A DNA stretch of 64,000 nucleotides, from sequence record MT446414.1. One strand, 5' to 3'. The notes under the pieces are model-generated. The model did no database searches, was not told the DNA's origin, and saw only the letters and a program-made list of their open reading frames with translations. Shown piece after piece: positions 33,253-63,700 of the stretch; position 1 is the stretch's first letter; every line of letters begins with the position of its first letter. The translations under genes were made by a program, and so were the position numbers. This DNA is from Escherichia virus TH43.

Positions 33253-33282
33253 TTTTATATCTCCTCTGATAAACGAGAGTGG

Positions 33283-34410
33283 CTAACCCATAAAGGCGTA
33301 TTCATCTAAAGGCCCACCCATGTATGAACCCATGTACGCTGATGTAAAGGGGACTCTATAAAGGCATACCCATAAAGGCCATGTCACATTAAGGCCACCT
33401 CATACCCATGAGCATGTCTCCACTCTACTTCATAATCCTCTTCGGTGAAGCTACCGTAGTCTTCTTCAGTCATGTTAAGGCCTATCCACCCATTTACTAT
33501 TCCTCACCTTACCACAGTCTGCACATCTCCATGTACTCTTGTAATAAGCGTGTAATCGTTCATCACCTCTTGATATCCGGATTGGATAGTACTCGTGATT
33601 ACATTTGAATTGCTTAACTAGTAACTTAATCTTCCACATAAAGTTGTTCCTCACTCTTAAATCCACAACTAACGTTGGGGCATATAGTTATATATAAGGG
33701 TTTTAAATTCTGATTTGACCGAGTGGACCTAGCCCCTCCGAGCGCGTTTCCTAAAAAGGGGGAGTCCTCATTTAAAAAAGGGTTATTACCAATGCAATTG
33801 CCTTTAGGAAATCAATCAGCCTTTAAGCTCTAAGCCTTGCCCTACCTGCTATCAGTGGCATGCCTACCCATAAATACCCTACCCATTAATATAAGCCATC
33901 TATTTAATACCCATGTATATCTAACCAGTGATTTCCTACCCGTATTTCTCTTACTCATATTGAGAAGGGATGAAAGGCTAGACTCTGATGCACTGTTAAG
34001 GGGTTATAATAAGAGGGCTAATAGTAAGGGCTATTATAGTAAGGTTAGTGATGGTAACACCATGCAATTATATCAATCCTCACACTACCCCACGTTTAAT
34101 AGTAATAACCTATGTTAATGTTTCATGAGTGGATTATTGATGTATGTATCATTAGACTGGAAGTAATAACTTTCTTTTATTATTCTCTTTTAATCTTTTC
34201 TTTTTCAGCGTGCTGTTGGTCTTTTTCTTTTGTTGTTTGAGTAAATTATTTGACTGGTAATTAACTCCCGCATGGTCTGGTCTGTCATCTGTAACTAACT
34301 TACATTATACCCTACCCGTTTCCCCTTCCTCGTTAGGCTTCTTACCCATTGGCTAACCTATGCGGCACGTTCTACCCATCTGTCGTTGCCGTTGGTCTGC
34401 TACCCGTTCT
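33283..34410. repeat. array of about 13 short ACCC[AG]T-core motifs in the divergent control region
   Basis: Repeated CTACCCAT / CTACCCGT / ACCCATAAAGG copies around 33285, 33316, 33329, 33368, 33404, 33867, 33880, 33910, 33938, 34312, 34343, 34374, 34401. Confidence 0.6.
33475..33666 (-). CDS. small Cys-rich (zinc-ribbon-like) protein
   Basis: CNHEY ... CADCGK spacing suggests a zinc ribbon. Confidence 0.3.
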   Translation of the reverse strand: MDLRVRNNFMWKIKLLVKQFKCNHEYYPIRISRGDERLHAYYKSTWRCADCGKVRNSKWVDRP

Positions 34411-36419: not shown

Positions 36420-36446
36420 AAGCGCCCTTTTGAGGCGCTTTTTTCA
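36420..36446 (+). terminator. intrinsic terminator
   Basis: AGCGCC cttttga GGCGCT stem-loop followed by TTTTTC. Confidence 0.6.
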
Positions 36447-36694
36447 TTTCTAAGGTGATTGCACATCTTGCCCCTGTTTATCTCGTTAGAACGCCTCCTA
36501 CATGCCTAGCTTTTGATTATAATGCTTGTTTTCTTCCTCCCTTGATGTTATTCGTGCGCGTGCTCATCTATACCTAAAAGAAAGTGAAATTATTTTAGAA
36601 AAAGGTATTGCTTTCTTTGCTTGATAGATTTATATTTGAATCTCAGGTTTAGTTATGCAGTCGGTAGCAAGCCTGATAGGCTAGACTTTTAGCC

Positions 36695-36708
36695 TTGCTC
36701 TTTAAAAA
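36695..36708 (+). promoter_or_regulatory. boxA-like element (copy 0)
   Basis: TTGCTCTTTAAAAA compared with rrn boxA GCTCTTTAACAA; preceded by hairpin GCCTgatAGGC. Confidence 0.45.
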
Positions 36709-36723
36709 CTCGATTAGTGTATC

Positions 36724-36750
36724 TTGATAAACTCCCAACCATGCCATAAT
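36724..36750 (+). promoter_or_regulatory. sigma70-like promoter (extended -10 type)
   Basis: TTGATA ... TGcCATAAT with short 15-nt spacer, upstream of ATG 36763. Confidence 0.35.
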
Positions 36751-36762
36751 GAGGATTTATCA

Positions 36763-36963
36763 ATGAACATCTATACCTTCTCAAGCAAAGACACACAAAT
36801 CACTTGCACTAGCATTAACGTTACTAACATGATTATGAGAATAGTCGGTAGTACATTACAGCAAGCGAAAGAAATGGTAGCCGATGCCGATAAAGGTAAA
36901 GCTATCGCGGTCTTATCGCTGGTAAGTACAGATAAAGATTTAACCTTTAAACGTATGAACTAG
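36763..36963 (+). CDS. hypothetical protein, 66 aa
   Basis: ATG with GAGGA upstream; track ORF 36724 trimmed. Confidence 0.35.
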   Translation: MNIYTFSSKDTQITCTSINVTNMIMRIVGSTLQQAKEMVADADKGKAIAVLSLVSTDKDLTFKRMN

Positions 36964-37030
36964 GGTAAGGTAAGGTTAGCGGCCTTAATGGTCGCTAGTT
37001 TATCAAGATGCATTAATCGAAAAATAGTTG

Positions 37031-37058
37031 TTGACACGTCGAATCGTTATGATAAGAT
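37031..37058 (+). promoter_or_regulatory. strong sigma70-like early promoter P1
   Basis: TTGACA (37031-37036), 16-nt spacer, TAAGAT (37053-37058); A-rich tract upstream. Confidence 0.6.
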
Positions 37059-37104
37059 GTGCACATGGTCAGCGATGACATAAAACATCCGGCACTAAGT
37101 GCCC

Positions 37105-37117
37105 CGCTCTTTAATAA
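37105..37117 (+). promoter_or_regulatory. boxA-like antitermination element (copy 1)
   Basis: CGCTCTTTAATAA, one mismatch to rrn boxA core; preceded by hairpin GGCACtaaGTGCC (37091-37103), i.e. rrn-like boxB-then-boxA order. Confidence 0.55.
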
Positions 37118-37192
37118 TTTATCGTCTTGCCCTTTCGCAAAGATTCACGCGAGATAAGGGAAGAGAACAAAAAGAAGACGATAAAAAAAGAG

Positions 37193-37220
37193 TTGACAAG
37201 GTGAAACGTTCTGATAGAAT
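37193..37220 (+). promoter_or_regulatory. strong sigma70-like early promoter P2
   Basis: TTGACA (37193-37198), 16-nt spacer, TAGAAT (37215-37220); A-rich tract upstream. Confidence 0.6.
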
Positions 37221-37243
37221 GTTCACTAAGCAGTAAGAAACAC

Positions 37244-37256
37244 CGCTCTTTAAAAA
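37244..37256 (+). promoter_or_regulatory. boxA-like antitermination element (copy 2)
   Basis: CGCTCTTTAAAAA about 25 nt downstream of the P2 -10. Confidence 0.5.
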
Positions 37257-37360
37257 TATGAATCAGAAAGTTAAGCGCAACCGCTTACAATCTTGTTAAT
37301 CCAATACGTGATTAACTGGTCATTCGAAAGAATAGACGAGAAAAAGATTTAAAAAAGTGG

Positions 37361-37389
37361 TTGACACGCTAAACAGGATGATTCATAAT
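37361..37389 (+). promoter_or_regulatory. strong sigma70-like early promoter P3
   Basis: TTGACA (37361-37366), 17-nt spacer, CATAAT (37384-37389); A-rich tract upstream. Confidence 0.6.
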
Positions 37390-37478
37390 GAGCACTCACT
37401 AAGCAAATCACCGCGAAGTGAACAGCGTAACAACGGCTAACAGTTGCATAGTGTGAGAAAGCACACTGATAGATTTAC

Positions 37479-37491
37479 CGCTCTTTAACAA
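37479..37491 (+). promoter_or_regulatory. boxA-like antitermination element (copy 3)
   Basis: CGCTCTTTAACAA followed by TTTA matches the rrn boxA consensus as recalled; preceded by hairpin GTGTGagaaagCACAC (37451-37466). Confidence 0.6.
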
Positions 37492-38305
37492 TTTAAACAT
37501 TCTCCTATATCGGTTGAATATGCTAGATGATAATAACCATCGGATAGCATACCAGATAAAACGGTGTAAGATTCTCTAAGTTATCAGAGTAAACAATCTC
37601 ACAATCCCTTACTGGAAACGTCACCACTGATAAGCAGATTCATCGAGTGCACGCAAAGACTTAAGCTAATCGCCCACGGTTAAGGGTAGCGGCGGTCATC
37701 GCTAACAAGGCGCTACGGTGAAAGAAGTTAATCAGGGTAGACAAGCCCGACTAATTAACGCTCAATTGAGAGCGGCGGGGAGTGGTTAAAAAGTGGCAAA
37801 TTGCTATTTAACAATAAGGTTTAGTGTGAACGTTTACGAAGTGAATGATTTGAGGCCACTATTGATGGCGTACATAATCAGTTTATGTAGTAAACCTGCT
37901 GAAAGATATAAAACGTCAATGTATCAGGCGGCTAATGACTCTTTCGCAATAACCTCCCGTAGTGGGCGATGGTTAGCGATTGAGAGTTGGTATAAAAGGA
38001 TAGGCGGGAGCGAAAGCAAAGTAAACGATATTACCGACGGTTACAATAAAGTAACTAATTAGAGTCGGGCACACTGCCTTATTGTGATGATTGATCATCG
38101 CTATCAGGTCGGCTTCGTTTATAGCGACTAATTAAAGATACCAGATGAAACATCACGGATAATGGGGCGGCTAGGTTAACTCCTGATAAGACCGCCCCAC
38201 TTACCTATAACTACTTAATAACGAGCGGTTATAGTTAAGTCATTGTGACTTGAATAGCTCATAGAGAGCGGCGCATAGAGCGTTTCAATTAAAAGGTAAA
38301 TTATC

Positions 38306-39208
38306 ATGGCTAAATCTTTCAATCTGGTTAACGAATCTGGCTTTAACGCACTGGCTAACAACATTCGTAGCAACAACGCAGCGATTAAGCAAGATGTTTC
38401 TAACTTCCTGTTAGGTCACTTACAGCACTTCCGTGCTAACGGTAAGAAGTTAGATGTATTGCAGGCGGCAGTAGACTTCCTGTTAACCGAGCGTTACCGT
38501 GATTTAGATGTGATTGCGGTTGCAATCTCTTTCCTCACTCCTATCAAGTACAACAGCGACGGGGCGAACGGTAAAAAGAAATGGATTAATCTGGAAGGTG
38601 AAGCGAAAGCGAAAGAAGACGCTAAGCCGGAACAAGTTAAGGCCAAAATGGAACAAAACCGTGCCCGCTGGTCTAACTCCTTTGAACGCTTTGCGAAAGG
38701 TGAAGACGTGCAGGTTGATAATCCAGCTTTCTATAAAGGTTGCAATGACAACGTGCCAGTTGCCAACCAAATCAACCAGAAAGTTGGCGAAAACTTCAGC
38801 CAGGATATTTACGCCTTAACTGATCGTTTGGCTGCAATCCGTATTGAAGCGGCCTTACTGGCTGATGAGCGCAACGGTGCATCTTCTGATAACACTATCG
38901 CATTGAGTGAAGAGGTAGGCAAAGTTAAGAAAACTTTTGATTCACTCCTTAAGAAAGTAACCGCATCAACTGTATCTATCAGCGATGACTATCTGATCAA
39001 TGCCTCAGCCAAAGAGCTTGAATCTCTGGATTCATACGCTGATGAAATGGAGAAAGCGATCAACGAAATGACTGAAAAATTGTCTAACCTTCGCGGTCGT
39101 ATCTCAAATGCTTCAACTGTCAAAGCGAACGAGAAGGCGGCGGCAGATGAGGAAGAAGTATTGCGCAAAGCTGCCGCAATCATGGCAGCACGCCAACAAG
39201 CTGCATAA
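38306..39208 (+). CDS. hypothetical early protein, 300 aa
   Basis: First substantial ORF downstream of the promoter/boxA block; ATG with AAAGG upstream; Ala/Lys/Glu-rich. Confidence 0.55.
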   Translation: MAKSFNLVNESGFNALANNIRSNNAAIKQDVSNFLLGHLQHFRANGKKLDVLQAAVDFLLTERYRDLDVIAVAISFLTPIKYNSDGANGKKKWINLEGEAKAKEDAKPEQVKAKMEQNRARWSNSFERFAKGEDVQVDNPAFYKGCNDNVPVANQINQKVGENFSQDIYALTDRLAAIRIEAALLADERNGASSDNTIALSEEVGKVKKTFDSLLKKVTASTVSISDDYLINASAKELESLDSYADEMEKAINEMTEKLSNLRGRISNASTVKANEKAAADEEEVLRKAAAIMAARQQAA

Positions 39209-39228
39209 CTTACAATAAAGAACATATA

Positions 39229-39262
39229 AGGCGCTATTCGAAAGGGTAGCGCCTTTTCTTTT
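39229..39262 (+). terminator. intrinsic terminator
   Basis: AGGCGCTA ... TAGCGCC stem with 10-nt loop followed by TTTTCTTTT. Confidence 0.6.
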
Positions 39263-39316
39263 ACTAGTGCATTGATTCAGTGTACTAATCAAAGAAGCTA
39301 AAAAGAGATAAACACC

Positions 39317-39541
39317 ATGCCAAAATTGAAAACAGAAGTTAAGATGTATCGTAATATCTTAAACAACATGACCTATCGTAAAACCGATAAGTATGGAATC
39401 GAGTGTAAATGCATCCTTACCGGTGAATGGTATCCGTCACCGATTCAAGAACAAGCATTGATTGAAAACTCTGTTACTTACACCATCACGCAGGAAACTA
39501 AGCTAGGCCGATTCCTTCGTAAGTTAGGGCTACGCAAATGA
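39317..39541 (+). CDS. hypothetical protein, 74 aa
   Basis: ATG with AAGAGA upstream. Confidence 0.4.
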   Translation: MPKLKTEVKMYRNILNNMTYRKTDKYGIECKCILTGEWYPSPIQEQALIENSVTYTITQETKLGRFLRKLGLRK

Positions 39542-40038: not shown

Positions 40039-40482
40039 ATGGCTAAATCTAAAATCAGCATGAAAGGCGGGCGTGTGTTCTCGATGAGTGAACTGGAAAA
40101 AGATAAGCCAGTCGCCACTAACCACGTTAGCAAACGTAGCCTTAAACGTAGAGCTATCAAACAAGCCGCTCAAGAACATAAACCGTCTACCGTAGCAAAG
40201 GTGTTAGGGCGTCGTGTTCACCGTGCTGATGCGCTTCTTCTTGCTGATCATAAGCGTTCCTTGTTAACCAACGGTGCAGCGAAAACAGAAGAAGAGAAAC
40301 GTTTAGAAATCTTCTGTAATGGTCGCACTAAGGGTAAGCAAAAGAATAAAGGTAGCACTAAGCCACCGAAAGCTTTCCCTACTACCAGCCAATGTGCACC
40401 TGATGTTTTCTACGCTGACAGTCAGCATAAATGGGGAGTCGAAAAATACATCGACCCCATCAAGGAAGCGAGAGTGAAGTAA
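40039..40482 (+). CDS. basic, probably nucleic-acid-binding protein, 147 aa
   Basis: Lys/Arg-rich; AAAGGA upstream of ATG. Confidence 0.45.
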   Translation: MAKSKISMKGGRVFSMSELEKDKPVATNHVSKRSLKRRAIKQAAQEHKPSTVAKVLGRRVHRADALLLADHKRSLLTNGAAKTEEEKRLEIFCNGRTKGKQKNKGSTKPPKAFPTTSQCAPDVFYADSQHKWGVEKYIDPIKEARVK

Positions 40483-40514
40483 GCCTCTTCTCTGTACCAG
40501 TAGTCAACTACTAT

Positions 40515-40540
40515 GACGCTCTTCTTGAGCGTCTTTGTGT
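40515..40540 (+). terminator. intrinsic terminator 1 of a cluster
   Basis: GACGCTC ttctt GAGCGTC followed by TTTGTGT. Confidence 0.5.
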
Positions 40541-40542
40541 CT

Positions 40543-40564
40543 GCCGCCTTTGTGCGGCTTTTTG
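40543..40564 (+). terminator. intrinsic terminator 2 of a cluster
   Basis: GCCGC ctttgt GCGGC followed by TTTTTG. Confidence 0.5.
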
Positions 40565-40713
40565 CGTAGCTAGTGATGCCTAAAGGGAAAGCCCTTTGTG
40601 AATCATTGGCATGGTTCAATCCCTATTGGATGGTCATTTGACCGGGCCTTTAACGAGGCCGCTTTTTTAAGAGTCTTTACGAGGATTCTTAAATGAGTGA
40701 GGTCATGTTCACT

Positions 40714-40741
40714 CTTTCAGGTCGCCCCGTCTTCGGATGGG
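40714..40741 (+). terminator. intrinsic terminator 3 (strongest)
   Basis: GCCCC gtcttcggat GGGGC followed by TTTTTTAT. Confidence 0.65.
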
Positions 40742-40801
40742 GCTTTTTTATGCCCGTAAAACAGGAGGTAGTAAGTTCTGATAACGACAGCCCAGCTACT
40801 T

Positions 40802-41188
40802 TTGACATTGACTATTTATTATGAGGCAGGGAATCAGCCAACCGCTTGCAAAGCATTAGTAGCGGATACCGTAATAAACAGAATGTCACAACGAAAACTG
40901 ACTGCCGAGCAGGTTATAAACCAACGAAACCAGTTCGAGTGGATACCCGTCTTATTAAAGAAGGAGAAACCTTTCAAACGTTATGTAAAGCTAATTCGTG
41001 ATGATAACCCTCTGACGAAGAAGTCAATCAGGGAGAGCGAGCAGCTTGCAAGACGTGCACTGAAGAAAAGTTATGTGCCTTTGTATAGCGGTACATACTT
41101 TCAGAGTAAGAGCGAAGGGGTGCCAAAGTGGTATACCAATCCAATGTATTGTGGTGATTTAGTGTTCAATAATAGTGCCCGTGACTGA
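40802..41188 (+). CDS. putative SleB-like cell-wall hydrolase domain protein
   Basis: LTIYYEAGNQ ... LVADTVINR ... NQFEW resembles the Hydrolase_2 signature as recalled; strong AGGAGGT at 40762-40768 implies a non-AUG start upstream of the track TTG start. Confidence 0.4.
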   Translation: MTLTIYYEAGNQPTACKALVADTVINRMSQRKLTAEQVINQRNQFEWIPVLLKKEKPFKRYVKLIRDDNPLTKKSIRESEQLARRALKKSYVPLYSGTYFQSKSEGVPKWYTNPMYCGDLVFNNSARD

Positions 41189-41389
41189 TTCATAGGTGCC
41201 AAGATTGACAAACTAAATTCCCTTATAAATCACCTACTTATGATTTTCTCTGCAAAAAGTGGTAGTGATTCGGAACCAGAGGTAATGACTGTATATAGAC
41301 CTCTGAAAATTATTGATAGAAATTAAGTTTAGAAATAATAAATTCTAAATAATATTTCTTATAATATCTTACTTTAAGAGGATAAAGAT

Positions 41390-42307: not shown

Positions 42308-42431
42308 CATCGACTTATAGCCCTTGTGCTTATCAGAGGGCTATGTGAGGATGTTCCTCAATTAACTATAATCTCAATGCCATATGGCTCACCGCTAGGG
42401 CGAGACTTGTCTCAAACATCCGGTGATAGAC
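42308..42431 (+). repeat. conserved structured intergenic element, copy A
   Basis: Hairpin ATAGCCCT-12nt-AGGGCTAT (42317-42344), then GCTAGGG and second hairpin GAGAC..GTCTC, then AACATCCGgtGATAG; near-identical copy at 48221. Confidence 0.6.
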
Positions 42432-42943: not shown

Positions 42944-42949
42944 ATAAGA

Positions 42950-42980
42950 GGCTGCCCTTCGGGGTGGCCTTTGTTGTTTT
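42950..42980 (+). terminator. intrinsic terminator
   Basis: GGCTGCCC ttcg GGGTGGCC followed by TTTGTTGTTTT. Confidence 0.55.
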
Positions 42981-44337: not shown

Positions 44338-44760
44338 TTGAAGATAGAGTTAGAATACCCCTTCGTTAATGACTGGCGATTGGGCTACTTAAGAACAAGC
44401 AGAGACGGTAGGAAGCGTGTTGATTTGTATAATACCGACACGGAGAGGACAACCATTTCTTACGCAAGATATTTAATGTCTTGTCACATAGGCAGGTACC
44501 TAACTGAAGACGAGGAGGTTGATCATATTGACAGAAATAAAACTAATGATGACATATCTAATCTTCAGATACTTTCCATAGAAAATCACAGAAAGAAGTC
44601 AACATTAGAAGCAACTACTGGAAGAACAATGATTTCAGTTGTTTGCTCTTATTGTGGAAGATCTTTTGAAAAAGAAAAGCGAAATGTTAAATATGCAAAT
44701 TCTTTTTGTAACAGATCATGTGCAGGTAAGTATAACGGTTTCAAATCTATCGGGGCGTAG
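44338..44760 (+). CDS. HNH homing endonuclease
   Basis: EVDHIDRNKTNDDISNLQILSIENHRKK is a classic HNH core, plus C-terminal CxxC ... C...C; TTG start with GGAGGGG upstream. Confidence 0.65.
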   Translation: MKIELEYPFVNDWRLGYLRTSRDGRKRVDLYNTDTERTTISYARYLMSCHIGRYLTEDEEVDHIDRNKTNDDISNLQILSIENHRKKSTLEATTGRTMISVVCSYCGRSFEKEKRNVKYANSFCNRSCAGKYNGFKSIGA

Positions 44761-45800: not shown

Positions 45801-46049
45801 ATGTCTTCTAAAAAGAAAGAACTGTTCAACAAACGCCTTTCTGATGCCCTTCAGTGGCGTCGTGATGTTGCTAATGGCTGCGTAAAAGCAAGCTATGAAA
45901 CATTCAGTGGGTTTGATGAAACCTATGCAGGGTTCAAAGGAAGCATCTCCTGTGATGATCTCGATAAGATTTGTGAAAAGTCTTATGAGATGGAAGATAA
46001 TCTTTGTATTGGCTGGAGCATGGGGGAGCTTCGTCCCAACACTAAGTAA
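45801..46049 (+). CDS. hypothetical protein, 82 aa
   Basis: ATG with GGAG upstream. Confidence 0.45.
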   Translation: MSSKKKELFNKRLSDALQWRRDVANGCVKASYETFSGFDETYAGFKGSISCDDLDKICEKSYEMEDNLCIGWSMGELRPNTK

Positions 46050-46325
46050 TATCGTGAAGGATTCTTACGAGAGTCCTTTGAGATAGGACTTCAGATCTCC
46101 TATCAACTAACCGCTCAATGTTGAGCATTTTAATCACATAAGCCCCTCATGGGCTGGGTTTAATGCCGGTAAGCGTTTTATGCTATCCACTACAGCATCG
46201 GATTGTTAGGTCTTACATGCAACATTAATTAATAGGATATGGGAGGATTCGTCCCCTCCCCCTATTTATGAAAGCATTCTTCCGAGAGTTCTCTCATAAA
46301 TTGGTCCATAACTAAAGGTGGTAAA

Positions 46326-48220: not shown

Positions 48221-48354
48221 CATCTATAGCCCTTGTGAGTATCAGAGGGCTATGTGAGCTATTCTGGCTCAACTAACCTAAACTTAATTTAATCTTACCC
48301 GTATGGGGCCGATGCTAGGGAGAGGAACAGTCCTCGAACATCCGTCGGATAGAA
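48221..48354 (+). repeat. conserved structured intergenic element, copy B
   Basis: Hairpin ATAGCCCT-12nt-AGGGCTAT (48226-48253) nearly identical to copy A; second hairpin GAGGA..TCCTC covaries with GAGAC..GTCTC of copy A. Confidence 0.6.
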
Positions 48355-58692: not shown

Positions 58693-60483
58693 ATGTCAAA
58701 GATCATTTTAGGGGATACAGGTTGTAAAGAATGTATCTCTCATGGTCGTGATAAGACCCACAATCACATGATTCTCTTCCGAAACGAAGAGTCCGGTGAA
58801 GAGTGGGGCAGTTGTAATCGTTGTGGCAGTTATGAAGTTTTCGAAAAGGGAACAACTCCTACACCGAATGAAAAGAAAGAACTATCCCCTGAAGAACTCC
58901 GAGAGATCTTAGACGATTGCTTAGAGCTGCCTCAGGGTGAGCTTACTCGTCGTTTGATTCCTAAAGCTGTCTCTGAACGGTATGAATGCCGTATTGGTTT
59001 GAGTCAGACAGATGGGCAAACTCCTGATAGTTACTTCTTCCCTCGTGAACGTGATGGAAACATTGTTGGTTATGAAGTTAAGCTTCTGGACAGCAAGAAA
59101 TTCTATTACATCGGCAGTGTTAAAGAAGCTGACCTATTCGGTATGGCTCAAGCACAACGTGGTGACGTGTACAACAAGAAGCTCTTCATCTTTGAAGACC
59201 CACTCTCTTGTATGTCTGGCTTCCATGTGCTCACTGCGTTTACGAACGCTACAAACATCAAACCTGCGTGTGTATCTCTACCGTTTGGTGCAGGTTCAAT
59301 CTCTTCCGTTCTCTCACGTAACCGTGACTTCTTGAATGGTTTTGAGGAGATTGTGCTCTGCATGGACAATGATGATGCAGGTGAGATTGCATTAACTAAA
59401 GGTCGTGCATTATATCCCCATGTTAAATTTGCTCGTATTCCGAAAGGAACCTTCACTTACAATGGTCAAGAGAAGGAAATCAAAGATGCAAATGACATGT
59501 TACTCGCTGGTCGAGGTCAAGAGTTATTCAACAATCTGAAATATTCAGCGAAGCGGGAATCACCTGCTGGTGCTGTTACTGTCTTTGATTGTTTAGAAGA
59601 TGCTCTGAAGAAAGCGGAGTGGGGTATTCCTTATCCGTGGAAAACTCTGAATGAAATGACCTTCGGTATTCGTTGGGGAGAGATGGTTGCAATCGGTGGT
59701 GGTGTTGGTTCAGGTAAAACCCTGATCGCACACGAACTGGTAGCATGGCTTTGCCTTGAACATGGGTTTAATGGTGGTGGCTTCTTCTTGGAAGAGAAGG
59801 TAGGCATGTCTGTTAAAAACATTGCAGGTAAGTCAGCATCTGTACCTTTCCACCGACCTGATGTTGAATATGAGGAATCTCAGCTACGTGATGAAGCACT
59901 TCGTTATGCTGATAAATTCTTCTTGTATGATAACTTCGGTCAGAATGAGTGGGATGATATTAAGCAGTGTATTCGCTTTTGGGTAGTTGAGAATCAGTGT
60001 AAGTTTATCATTCTTGATAACATCACTGCATTGGTATCTCACCTAACTCCTTCTGAAGTGAATACAGAAATCAGTAAGATTGCCTCAGAGCTTGCTGGTA
60101 TGTGTAAGGAATTAGACTTCACTGCTTTTGTATTATCTCACTTGAATGCTCCGGCAGGTGGTGCTCCTCACGAAGAAGGTGGACAGGTGAAAGAGGTTCA
60201 GTTCACTGGTTCACGTTCACTGATGCGTTGGTGTCAATGTATCATTGGTTTTGAACGAGATAAGCAAGCAGATGGGTTAGGCAAGAATTTGTCAATCATA
60301 CGACTCCTTAAGGAGCGTAACTATGGTCAGACAGGTGTTTGCTACACCAAATACATCAACGAAACAGGTCGTCTTGTAGAACGAGAAGATCATGAAGTTG
60401 ATGAAGCTAATCCGTTTGTCTTAACCAATGGTGAAGATGCAGCTTCCCTTCTAACACAAGACGGGGAGGCACGACCTTGGTAA
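58693..60483 (+). CDS. DNA primase-helicase (zinc finger, TOPRIM, DnaB-like helicase)
   Basis: N-terminal CxxC ... CxxC; TOPRIM-like [10 protein letters not shown]; Walker [10 protein letters not shown] and Walker B FIILDN; AAGGAGGA upstream. Confidence 0.8.
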
Positions 60484-61025
60484 AGAAAATATTCGCCTTC
60501 GATATTGAGGGTGATAATCTTTATGAGGGTATCCAAAATGTCTGGTGTATCTGGATATTTGATATTCTCTCAGGAGAGCGGTGGGGGTATCGCCCTCACC
60601 AAATTGAAGAAGCTCTTCACAAACTGAAGGAAGCTGATGTAGTTGTAGGACACAATATCATAGATTTTGACCTACCAGCTCTCTTTAAATTCTACTCTCA
60701 TGTAATACCCTTCCGTTTCAATGTTTTCGATACACTTTGCCTGAGTCGTTATCTCAAGCCTGACCGTATTGGAGACAATCCAGAATATCCCAAAGGTGAC
60801 CCAAGACATGGCCCTCGCGGTCATGGCCTCAAGCAATGGGGCGAATTTCTGGGGGAGCTGAAGGGTGACTATGGTGAGCAGGAAGAAGCATGGGATGCGT
60901 TCACTGAAGACATGTTCACATATTGTGAGCAAGACGTTAACTTGACGGTTAAGGTTTACATGTGTCTTTGCCAAATGGCTGGATTTGATTATAAGAATCC
61001 CCCATCTCTCAACTGGAAAATGTAG
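60477..61025 (+). CDS. 3'-5' exonuclease (DnaQ-like, DEDD family)
   Basis: Exo I FDIEGDN, Exo [14 protein letters not shown], Exo III YCEQDV. Confidence 0.65.
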
Positions 61026-63415: not shown

Positions 63416-63630
63416 TGGATAAATTATGGGCAGTTCGTACTAAATGGGCTAACAAAGCTCTTGGTGGTGATTGTATTCAATTATTCAACACAAGACAAGA
63501 GGCTCGTCTTGCTAAGAAAACTATAAAAGCTACAAAAGCTTTAGGAATCGCTGAAAAGGTGGAGATTCATCGTTGGATTGAAAATATCCAGAACAGTGCT
63601 GGATTCATATCCAGCAAGGTTTATTACTAG
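63415..63630 (+). CDS. small protein, NTRQEAR-motif paralog 2
   Basis: FNTRQEARLAKK; both paralogs end in K-V-(H/Y)-Y. Confidence 0.45.
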   Translation: MDKLWAVRTKWANKALGGDCIQLFNTRQEARLAKKTIKATKALGIAEKVEIHRWIENIQNSAGFISSKVYY

Positions 63631-63700
63631 TTGGTAGTAGATATGATAACTCTCAAATGTATATACAGTATAAGAATATTGTATGAAACAGGAGAGAGTT

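Follow-up and report, generated by a model that had tools for sequence, protein, structure and literature searches.

A ten-hairpin intergenic spacer with four terminator-like sites in the early region of Escherichia virus TH43

Described terminator clusters and the TH43 spacer

The tL2 terminator cluster of phage lambda, reportedly described by Luk and Szybalski in 1983, is situated between the bet and ral genes. A comparable arrangement is present in Escherichia virus TH43, where the 319-nt intergenic spacer at positions 40483-40801 (+ strand) is non-coding and highly structured; all positions refer to a stretch of 64,000 nucleotides from sequence record MT446414.1, here called the window. 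As in lambda, several hairpin-plus-U-run terminators (putative in TH43) are packed into a few hundred bases of an early operon that is read by the host RNA polymerase, has a boxA leader and carries essential genes downstream. Read-through in lambda requires N together with a boxB hairpin, whereas the search for an N-like protein in TH43 gave none, and the boxA elements of this phage follow the rrn consensus. A further difference is that TH43 is virulent and later switches to a sigma factor of its own, gp36.

The rrn operons of Escherichia coli share with this locus the strong tandem sigma70 promoters, the combination of a hairpin with a consensus boxA, a long untranslated RNA and stacked terminators downstream. 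However, the rrn terminators end their operon, whereas the cluster in TH43 is followed by ~50 early genes, and the region separating boxA from the cluster codes for proteins rather than rRNA. In the early operon of phage T7, tandem promoters A1-A3 are combined with intergenic RNase III sites and the early terminator TE. TH43 likewise has three tandem host-type promoters, a polycistronic early RNA and a terminator boundary within the early region, and the long imperfect intergenic hairpins found here and in the genus Kuravirus (hairpin H3 and a hairpin of ~18 bp, respectively) resemble RNase III processing sites. While the T7 early genes are closed by the single TE, the stack in TH43 stands in the midst of the early genes. 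Lastly, Gupta and Pal (2021; PMC8355165) described bacterial hairpin-cluster termination units, in which the hairpins are less than 15 nt apart and start no more than 80 nt from the stop codon. The hairpins of the TH43 spacer are separated by gaps of 0-10 nt, and the first of them, H0, begins 17 nt after the stop codon of the upstream gene. In contrast to the bacterial clusters, which mostly consist of two hairpins and show an exponential fall-off with size (PMC8355165), there are ten hairpins over 250 nt in TH43, which places this array at the extreme tail.

A 2-kb block around the spacer had matches in 98 phage records, the best of which were the Escherichia phages Bas88, TH42, TH34 and SU7. 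These phages belong to the Gordonclarkvirinae, mostly to Suseptimavirus, and the window is that of a phiEco32-like podophage of the Suseptimavirus clade. Its layout is that of phiEco32: the - strand carries the structural genes (2775-33023), and the early and middle genes follow on the + strand from ~34.6 kb onwards. In phiEco32, the early genes are read by the host sigma70 polymerase, whereas middle and late transcription starts at TAATGTATA-type promoters and is carried out by polymerase equipped with gp36, the sigma factor of the phage (PMC12276001, PMC4331800).

Hairpins, conservation and ancestry of the spacer

A consensus scan placed four terminator-like sites on the + strand of the spacer, and a second, independent scanner returned the same sites. 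T1 (stem-loop 40515-40533, with its tail to 40541) has a 7-bp stem (GACGCTC/GAGCGTC), a 5-nt loop and the tail TTTGTGTC (-12.9 kcal/mol, z = -4.7), and starts 33 nt after the stop codon. T2 (40543-40558, tail to 40564) consists of a 5-bp all-G-C stem (GCCGC/GCGGC) with a 6-nt loop and the tail TTTTTGCG (-9.1 kcal/mol, z = -2.3), while T3 (40645-40660, tail to 40668) has a 6-bp stem (GGCCTT/GAGGCC) and a 4-nt loop, followed by GC and then TTTTTT (-9.5 kcal/mol, z = -1.8). The last site, T4 (40724-40743, tail to 40749), has the 8-bp stem GCCCCGTC-TTCG-GATGGGGC with a UUCG loop, followed by TTTTTT (-16.2 kcal/mol, z = -4.2). Counted from the TAA stop, the four sites lie at a distance of 33-262 nt, in non-coding sequence of the transcribed strand. 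Their T-runs are found on the + strand side only, and none of the four has a T-run on the other strand. A preliminary description of this region had listed four + strand hairpins with T-runs after the gene at 40039-40482, in agreement with both scanners; its first three intervals were accurate, whereas the fourth (40714-40741) started ~10 nt early and clipped the stem.

The four sites differ in quality. T1 and T4 are stable GC-rich hairpins, while T2 and T3 are marginal against shuffles. With regard to a U-tract of ~7-9 nt directly 3' of the stem, T4 (TTTTTT) and T2 (TTTTTGCG) fit, while the tract of T1 is interrupted (TTTGTGTC; TTTTTGTC in relatives) and that of T3 follows the 2-nt GC spacer, which reads TC in several relatives. 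Because this spacer precedes its U-tract, T3 would be a weak terminator; the preliminary description had also judged the third hairpin to be the weaker one. For ranking only, we used a terminator d-score that combines tail and hairpin, the formula of which is said to stem from d'Aubenton-Carafa (1990). By this score T4 was far above every other site of the region, T1 and T2 were borderline and T3 was poor. T4 is thus predicted to be a canonical strong intrinsic terminator, with T2 as a putative moderate terminator, T1 as a borderline and T3 as a weak candidate. Among related phages, T4 is annotated as a terminator in Paul and WFI101126. The sequence GCTCTTCTT in T1 was considered as a boxA, but it deviates from the consensus at three positions.

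The whole 319-nt spacer RNA folded with z = -5.9 into ~10 successive hairpins, in the order H0, T1, T2, H3, H4, H5, T3, H6, H7 and T4, and all ~10 were retained by RNAalifold. The earlier count of three to four hairpins had captured the terminator-like ones and overlooked this consecutive series. H0 (40499-40512) is a weak hairpin of 4-5 bp (AGTAGTCAACTACT) that is disrupted in phage E20-1. H3 (40569-40610) is an imperfect 42-nt hairpin of 17 bp with two 1x1 internal loops, a 4-nt loop and no T-run. In the clade, all 20 pairs of the H3 segment are invariant and changes are confined to the loop and a bulge, and H3 is possibly a processing site (e.g. for RNase III) or a stabiliser. Neither H4 (40614-40631; 7 bp, including two G.U pairs) nor H5 (40632-40643; 4 bp) has a T-run, and both are specific to the clade. 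Two hairpins stand 5' of T4, namely the A/U-rich, clade-specific H6 (40666-40693; 12 bp) and H7 (40695-40714; 6-7 bp), which is partly common to Kuravirus; together the H6/H7 segment has a fold energy of -19 kcal/mol (z = -3.6).

Both the clustering of the sites and the degree of structure exceed what chance would give. In an 11-kb scan we counted 19 terminator-like sites versus 7.8 +/- 2.6 in shuffles, and in the 31-kb + strand region there were 30 real sites versus a shuffle mean of 10.8. Four or more sites within 230 nt did not occur in any of 120 dinucleotide shuffles of the 31-kb region. When the real permissive sites were scattered uniformly, the cluster had p ~0.03. Among 308 segments of 200 nt from the same + strand region, 40501-40700 was the most structured (z ~-10), the next reaching -6.7 and the regional mean being -1.2. 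Other 200-nt + strand segments with strong fold z-scores (-4.7 to -6.7) were 39201-39400, which contains a terminator at 39228, 45801-46100, 60301-60700 and 63501-63700.

Selection on this structure was assessed in 15 aligned genomes of the clade. Mean pairwise identity was 95.9% in the spacer, 89.6% in the upstream gene and 96.5% in the hydrolase gene that follows, and T4 including its T-run was invariant. Variable columns were rarer in stems than outside them (12 of 158 paired versus 19 of 86 unpaired columns, p = 0.0014); the stems of the spacer are under purifying selection. The stem changes that do occur (40528 A>G, 40650 U>C, 40685 A>G, 40688 C>U and 40701 G>A) keep pairing only in the + strand RNA: the change at 40528 in T1 leaves a G.U pair, and that at 40650 in T3 turns U.G into C-G. 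T2 is disrupted in E20-1 alone, via C>G at 40555. The spacer stems contain 11 G.U pairs, and the fold energy of the spacer is -117.5 kcal/mol on the + strand versus -101 kcal/mol on the - strand.

Public records disagree about this sequence. At 40598-40824 and the homologous positions of Bas86/87/88, UKE3, MLP3 and IME267, conflicting hypothetical proteins of 29-39 aa are annotated on either strand, while other GenBank records of the clade have one terminator or nothing annotated in the spacer. The small open reading frames (ORFs) 40598-40696 and 40693-40824, present in the annotation of some records, are interrupted in relatives by indels of 1-2 nt, and so is the 114-nt - strand ORF of MLP3 and IME267, which covers T1, T2 and part of H3. 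Since single-base indels break every annotated small ORF, the spacer is non-coding; in place of the inconsistent public annotation, an entry as a non-coding terminator array would be appropriate.

Comparison with other genera indicated which of these hairpins are old. The full spacer is present in ~21 records, and 75 others match only its last 85 nt, comprising T4 and the leader of the hydrolase gene. In phiEco32, SU10 and Paul (all Kuravirus) and in EP335 (Nieuwekanaalvirus) we found a T1-like hairpin without T-tail, T2, a different hairpin of ~18 bp and T4. The T1 hairpin of Kuravirus is followed by GTGCCCTC, and the ~18-bp hairpin occupies the position of H3 after T2, with a sequence different from that of H3. 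T4 in Kuravirus and EP335 shows a compensatory U-A to G-C stem change relative to this clade. Compared with those genera, T1 in this clade has gained a U-tail, and ~38 nt are replaced by ~130 nt with H3, H4, H5, T3 and H6. As judged from this comparison, T2, T4 and the T1 hairpin are ancestral, and the T1 U-tail and T3 are clade-specific additions. Because T2 and T4 are shared by phiEco32, SU10, Paul and EP335, the subfamily has inherited a double terminator at this junction, which is locally elaborated into a stack of four in this clade. The junction is also a cargo site, with a 57-aa gene before T1 in Paul and EP335, the 265-aa phi32_119 in phiEco32 and no such gene in SU10. A derivation of the spacer from the Kuravirus 57-aa gene was rejected, since a BLAST search of the block against Paul gave only the T2 and T4 pieces.

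Serial attenuation, boxA and competing explanations

Transcripts that reach the array presumably originate 3.1-3.5 kb upstream, at three near-consensus sigma70 early promoters on the + strand (37031-37058, 37193-37220 and 37361-37389; 10-11 of 12 matches, each with a perfect TTGACA). For the homologous spacer, the SU10 paper reports three early promoters of the sigma70 type; it places the next promoter on that strand, a middle promoter, 26 kb away. Likewise, promoter scans of the window predicted none downstream of the junction for ~26 kb, up to the first middle promoter, and ~50 further genes classed as early are located there. A TTGACA at 41205 with a TATAAA was discarded as a promoter, the spacer between them being 13 nt.

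We regard it as reasonably probable that the array is a serial attenuator or boundary within this early operon. In its construction it is a well-built and essentially ordinary transcription stop or attenuation site, which elaborates the conserved two-terminator junction. From the hairpins and their U-runs we infer that transcription terminates at these sites, and the efficiency of termination and the role of the additional hairpins are to be understood in the same way. The host sigma70 polymerase would start from the three early promoters, and the nascent RNA would fold into the ~10 successive hairpins, of which the four with U-runs would work in series as Rho-independent terminators. T4, with its GC-rich 8-bp stem, UUCG loop and six U residues, would bear the main load; T2 would be an older auxiliary site, and T1, having gained its U-tail, and T3 would be additions of the clade. 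As each site would remove a fraction of the polymerases, transcription would step down steeply after the promoter-proximal genes. The stop would not be absolute, however, since the ~50 early genes downstream have no predicted promoter and residual read-through must feed them. Most probably, H3-H7, which lack U-runs, would act in cis, either as processing sites or by shielding the 3' ends that termination or processing leaves on the transcripts. The proposal in the preliminary description that stacked terminators mark a strong transcriptional boundary has held up as far as the sequence allows, with a textbook T4, T2 and T4 conserved across genera, and a unidirectional array.

Several points weigh against this interpretation. 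T1-T3 are marginal by hairpin energy or tail, and T2 and T3 are singly not significant against shuffles. The test for covariation within the clade was uninformative because the alignment was too shallow: 103 of 500 shuffles scored as high, and there was no double-sided change. Additional diversity was sought in a viral-contig scan and a metagenome scan, which returned near-identical clade members only. The roles given above for H3-H7 are guesses, and no transcript 3'-end data for any phage of this group were found in the searchable literature. Moreover, a strong T4 in front of ~50 early genes does not sit easily with a simple stop and would accommodate active antitermination.

The latter is the subject of the alternative that survives best, which we consider possible but clearly less probable than serial attenuation. 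Here the terminators would halt unmodified polymerase, while polymerase modified by a Nus complex loaded at boxA would read into the distal early genes, so that the array would gate or time the expression of everything downstream. The complex could be of the rrn type (NusA, NusB, NusE, NusG and SuhB), possibly with a promoter-proximal phage protein. The preliminary description had likewise combined boxA-like elements upstream with the terminators into an antitermination checkpoint. The boxA elements are real. The pattern GYTCTTTAANA, which is the functional gamma-proteobacterial BoxA consensus (PMC5725501), has 5 matches in the window versus 0.56 expected, and four perfect boxA elements are located on the + strand at 36697-36707, 37106-37116, 37245-37255 and 37480-37490. 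The last three follow the -10 elements of the three early promoters by 24-90 nt, and hairpins at 36678-36695, 37091-37103 and ~37452-37467 precede three of the four, giving the boxB-boxA order of rrn leaders. All are conserved in phiEco32, SU10, EP335, SU7 and Bas88. A fifth near-boxA (GCTATTTAACAA, ~37803) is likewise conserved. No paper linking boxA to phiEco32-like phages was found in the searchable literature, which covers the experimental work on phiEco32 incompletely.

Supporting the idea of a gate, the four perfect boxA elements come directly after the early promoters, are conserved across genera and stand in rrn-like order, and the ~26 kb without predicted promoter downstream hold genes classed as early. 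In addition, intrinsic terminators are conserved elsewhere in the same operon. One of them, at 39228-39255 (+ strand), stands after a 300-aa gene and has a 12-bp stem and the tail TTCTTTTAC; this terminator and the one at 42947-42972 are conserved in phiEco32, SU10 and EP335, so that the operon appears to be punctuated repeatedly. Hairpins resembling intrinsic terminators were seen in the same early unit at 42947-42972 and at 36420-36440, and the SU10 paper lists none of the hairpins that correspond to 39228-39255, 42947-42972 and 36420-36440. There is also biochemical precedent, as one intrinsic terminator, lambda tR', is suppressed by a complete rrn-type complex in vitro (PMC6614801), and RNA polymerase-binding phage proteins that antiterminate exist, such as P23-45 gp39 (PMC3351154).

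However, the boxA elements have an explanation of their own. The established role of boxA in vivo is to prevent termination by Rho (PMC7665894, PMC5725501), and in TH43 a 1.2-kb untranslated leader would otherwise be exposed to Rho. This leader, at 37119-38319, is 86-89% identical to phiEco32, SU10 and EP335, with 18-25 gap openings and no conserved ORF; being conserved across genera and yet riddled with indels, the stretch is a conserved untranslated early leader. Furthermore, the boxA-using rrn operons themselves end at tandem intrinsic terminators, e.g. rrnB T1 and T2, so the cluster may serve to stop the modified polymerase rather than be overridden by it. The boxA elements and the cluster are 3.0-3.8 kb apart with no physical link between them, and the link drawn in the preliminary description is an inferential one. 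Nor was an N-like or other recognisable antiterminator found among the promoter-proximal proteins. For the seven proteins flanking the cluster, Pfam and PHROGs gave no match to an antiterminator family, and two of them, compared with the PDB (Protein Data Bank), had no relative there. The product of the gene directly upstream of the array is very basic, but basicity alone is not evidence for an N-like role. With conserved boxA elements, the precedent of the rrn complex and no downstream promoters, a gate of this kind is mechanistically permissible.

A broader version of the same idea, which we hold still more tentatively, is that the phiEco32-like early operon mimics an rrn operon. Its tandem promoters, boxB-like hairpin with boxA and 1.2-kb leader would recruit Nus factors and SuhB, and the ten-hairpin stack would be a calibrated gate passed only by the modified polymerase. 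On this view, the early genes in the 26 kb without promoters would be read fast and free of Rho, and the hairpins between the terminators might in addition be released as stable RNAs. No report of processive antitermination of this host-only, N-independent kind in a lytic coliphage was found in the searchable literature. If true, gating via boxA would add a virulent phage to the known cases of host-only Nus/BoxA antitermination (rRNA, suhB and CRISPR arrays). The rrn-like boxA leader (36697-38305) is for this group the more interesting lead, compared with the terminator array.

It is unlikely that the spacer encodes one or more stable trans-acting small RNAs (sRNAs), directed for instance at host mRNAs, Hfq or a defence system. 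The candidates would be H3-H4-T3 (~100 nt) and H6-H7-T4 (~85 nt), made by termination at T3 or T4 and 5' processing, in the manner of sRNAs derived from 3' untranslated regions. In favour of this, the spacer holds the most structured segment of the 31-kb region, has stems under purifying selection and is better conserved than the neighbouring upstream gene, and H6-H7-T4 has the hairpins-plus-terminator look of enterobacterial sRNAs. A U6 tail, as on T4, is of the kind bound by Hfq. Weak sub-threshold Rfam matches to sRNAs all covered 40661-40751, with a best E-value of 0.03, far below gathering scores. Indeed, no Rfam family reached its gathering score in the spacer, the best sub-threshold match having 20.3 bits versus a cut-off of 49.5. 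A promoter scan of 40483-40760 gave no sigma70-like or TAATGTATA-like site (the best site on manual inspection had 4 of 6 matches per hexamer), which leaves an sRNA gene with no internal promoter of the sigma70 or gp36 class. Moreover, the H3-H6 block occurs only in one clade (~21 records) and in two near-identical contigs, while the Kuravirus sequence is unrelated there, and no target was identified by complementarity. With respect to a tRNA or pseudo-tRNA, GGTTCAATCCC in H4 resembles a T-loop, but its flanks form no T-arm and neither ARAGORN nor Rfam gives a tRNA there; the one tRNA that ARAGORN finds in the window is a tRNA-Arg at 44751. An origin from the host or from a mobile element was likewise rejected, as there was no match in 5,426 E. 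coli genomes and the spacer is not repeated elsewhere in the window. With no internal promoter, Rfam family, tRNA or E. coli homology, an independent sRNA gene is unsupported, and so is the earlier suggestion that the spaces between the terminators could encode short stable RNAs. Since the intervening hairpins are conserved under stem-preserving selection, processed 3'-derived RNAs could still be formed.

A feature at the DNA level or a neutral one (protein-binding palindromes, an origin-like or recombination-prone element, or scars of gene gain and loss, with no role for the RNA) would fit the variable gene content of the junction and the two linear GenBank records (HC-25922 and PE006) that terminate in the spacer, but it is very improbable, as the 11 G.U pairs would be mispaired in a DNA cruciform or in the opposite strand, the tolerated stem substitutions preserve pairing in the + strand RNA alone, T-runs follow the hairpins on one strand only and the spacer is conserved above the flanking upstream gene.

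With serial attenuation as the preferred explanation, the array would be the main predicted step-down of early transcription in a phage group that models the takeover by sigma factors (gp36, gp79). It raises the question of how ~50 early genes are transcribed past a strong, invariant terminator without a promoter of their own. For synthetic biology, the whole stack, or T4 alone, would be a compact and evolution-tested terminator.

Flanking genes and minor features

The upstream early gene (40039-40482, + strand) encodes a very basic protein of 147 aa, a homologue of phi32_120 that belongs to PHROG 11641 (1.7e-82; function unknown); searches of Pfam and the PDB gave no match for it. The gene ends with a TAA at 40480-40482, upstream of the hairpin array. 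The downstream early gene (40802-41188, + strand) encodes a SleB-like cell wall hydrolase, a homologue of phi32_117 (Pfam PF07486, 2.1e-07; PHROG 12974). It starts with the TTG at 40802, while Kuravirus has an ATG one codon earlier. A conserved Shine-Dalgarno sequence, AGGAGG (AGGGGG in most relatives), is located 5' of the hydrolase gene at 40764-40769 (+ strand), ~32 nt upstream of this TTG, which is the one plausible start codon. GenBank records place the start at CTG, TTG or a downstream ATG, varying by record. A split ribosome-binding site, with a hairpin bridging the Shine-Dalgarno sequence and the start codon, was rejected, since the fold is weak, at -6 to -9 kcal/mol, and is not shared by the other genera. 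RNAalifold also paired a pyrimidine run at 40486-40491, just 3' of the upstream stop codon, with the Shine-Dalgarno sequence at 40764-40769, thereby enclosing the whole array. One pair of this outer helix is U-A, U.G or C-G among relatives, and the incompatible combination was never seen. This pairing could be long-range sequestration of the Shine-Dalgarno sequence or a coincidence.

The linear records OQ555404 (HC-25922) and OQ938541/PQ812250 (PE006) end within the spacer, at the equivalents of ~40513 and ~40708 of the window, respectively. These ends may be assembly or coverage breaks at the hairpin array, though they are not statistically compelling.

In phiEco32, phi32_119 (NC_010324, 69718-70515; 7040-7837 in reverse-complement locus coordinates) is annotated as a tail protein and is a moron-like gene inserted immediately 3' of T4, with an annotated start that overlaps T4. 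Translation probably begins further downstream, at ATGAAAGCAATTG..., where a signal-peptide-like N-terminus is encoded. This ATGAAAGCAATTG is preceded by TACTGTATA, one mismatch from the gp36 promoter motif, and phi32_119 is followed by a hairpin of its own.

Two repeats were observed elsewhere in the window. A 34-nt palindromic repeat (TATAGCCCTTGTG..TATCAGAGGGCTATGTGAG) occurs twice in the early region, at 42316-42349 and 48225-48258, with the copies 5.9 kb apart and 94% identical. Furthermore, a direct repeat of ~41 nt (GGCTAACCCATAAAGGC...) with copies 82 nt apart is present at 33281-33403, in the divergent region that separates the structural block from the early one, near what are the physical ends of related genomes.

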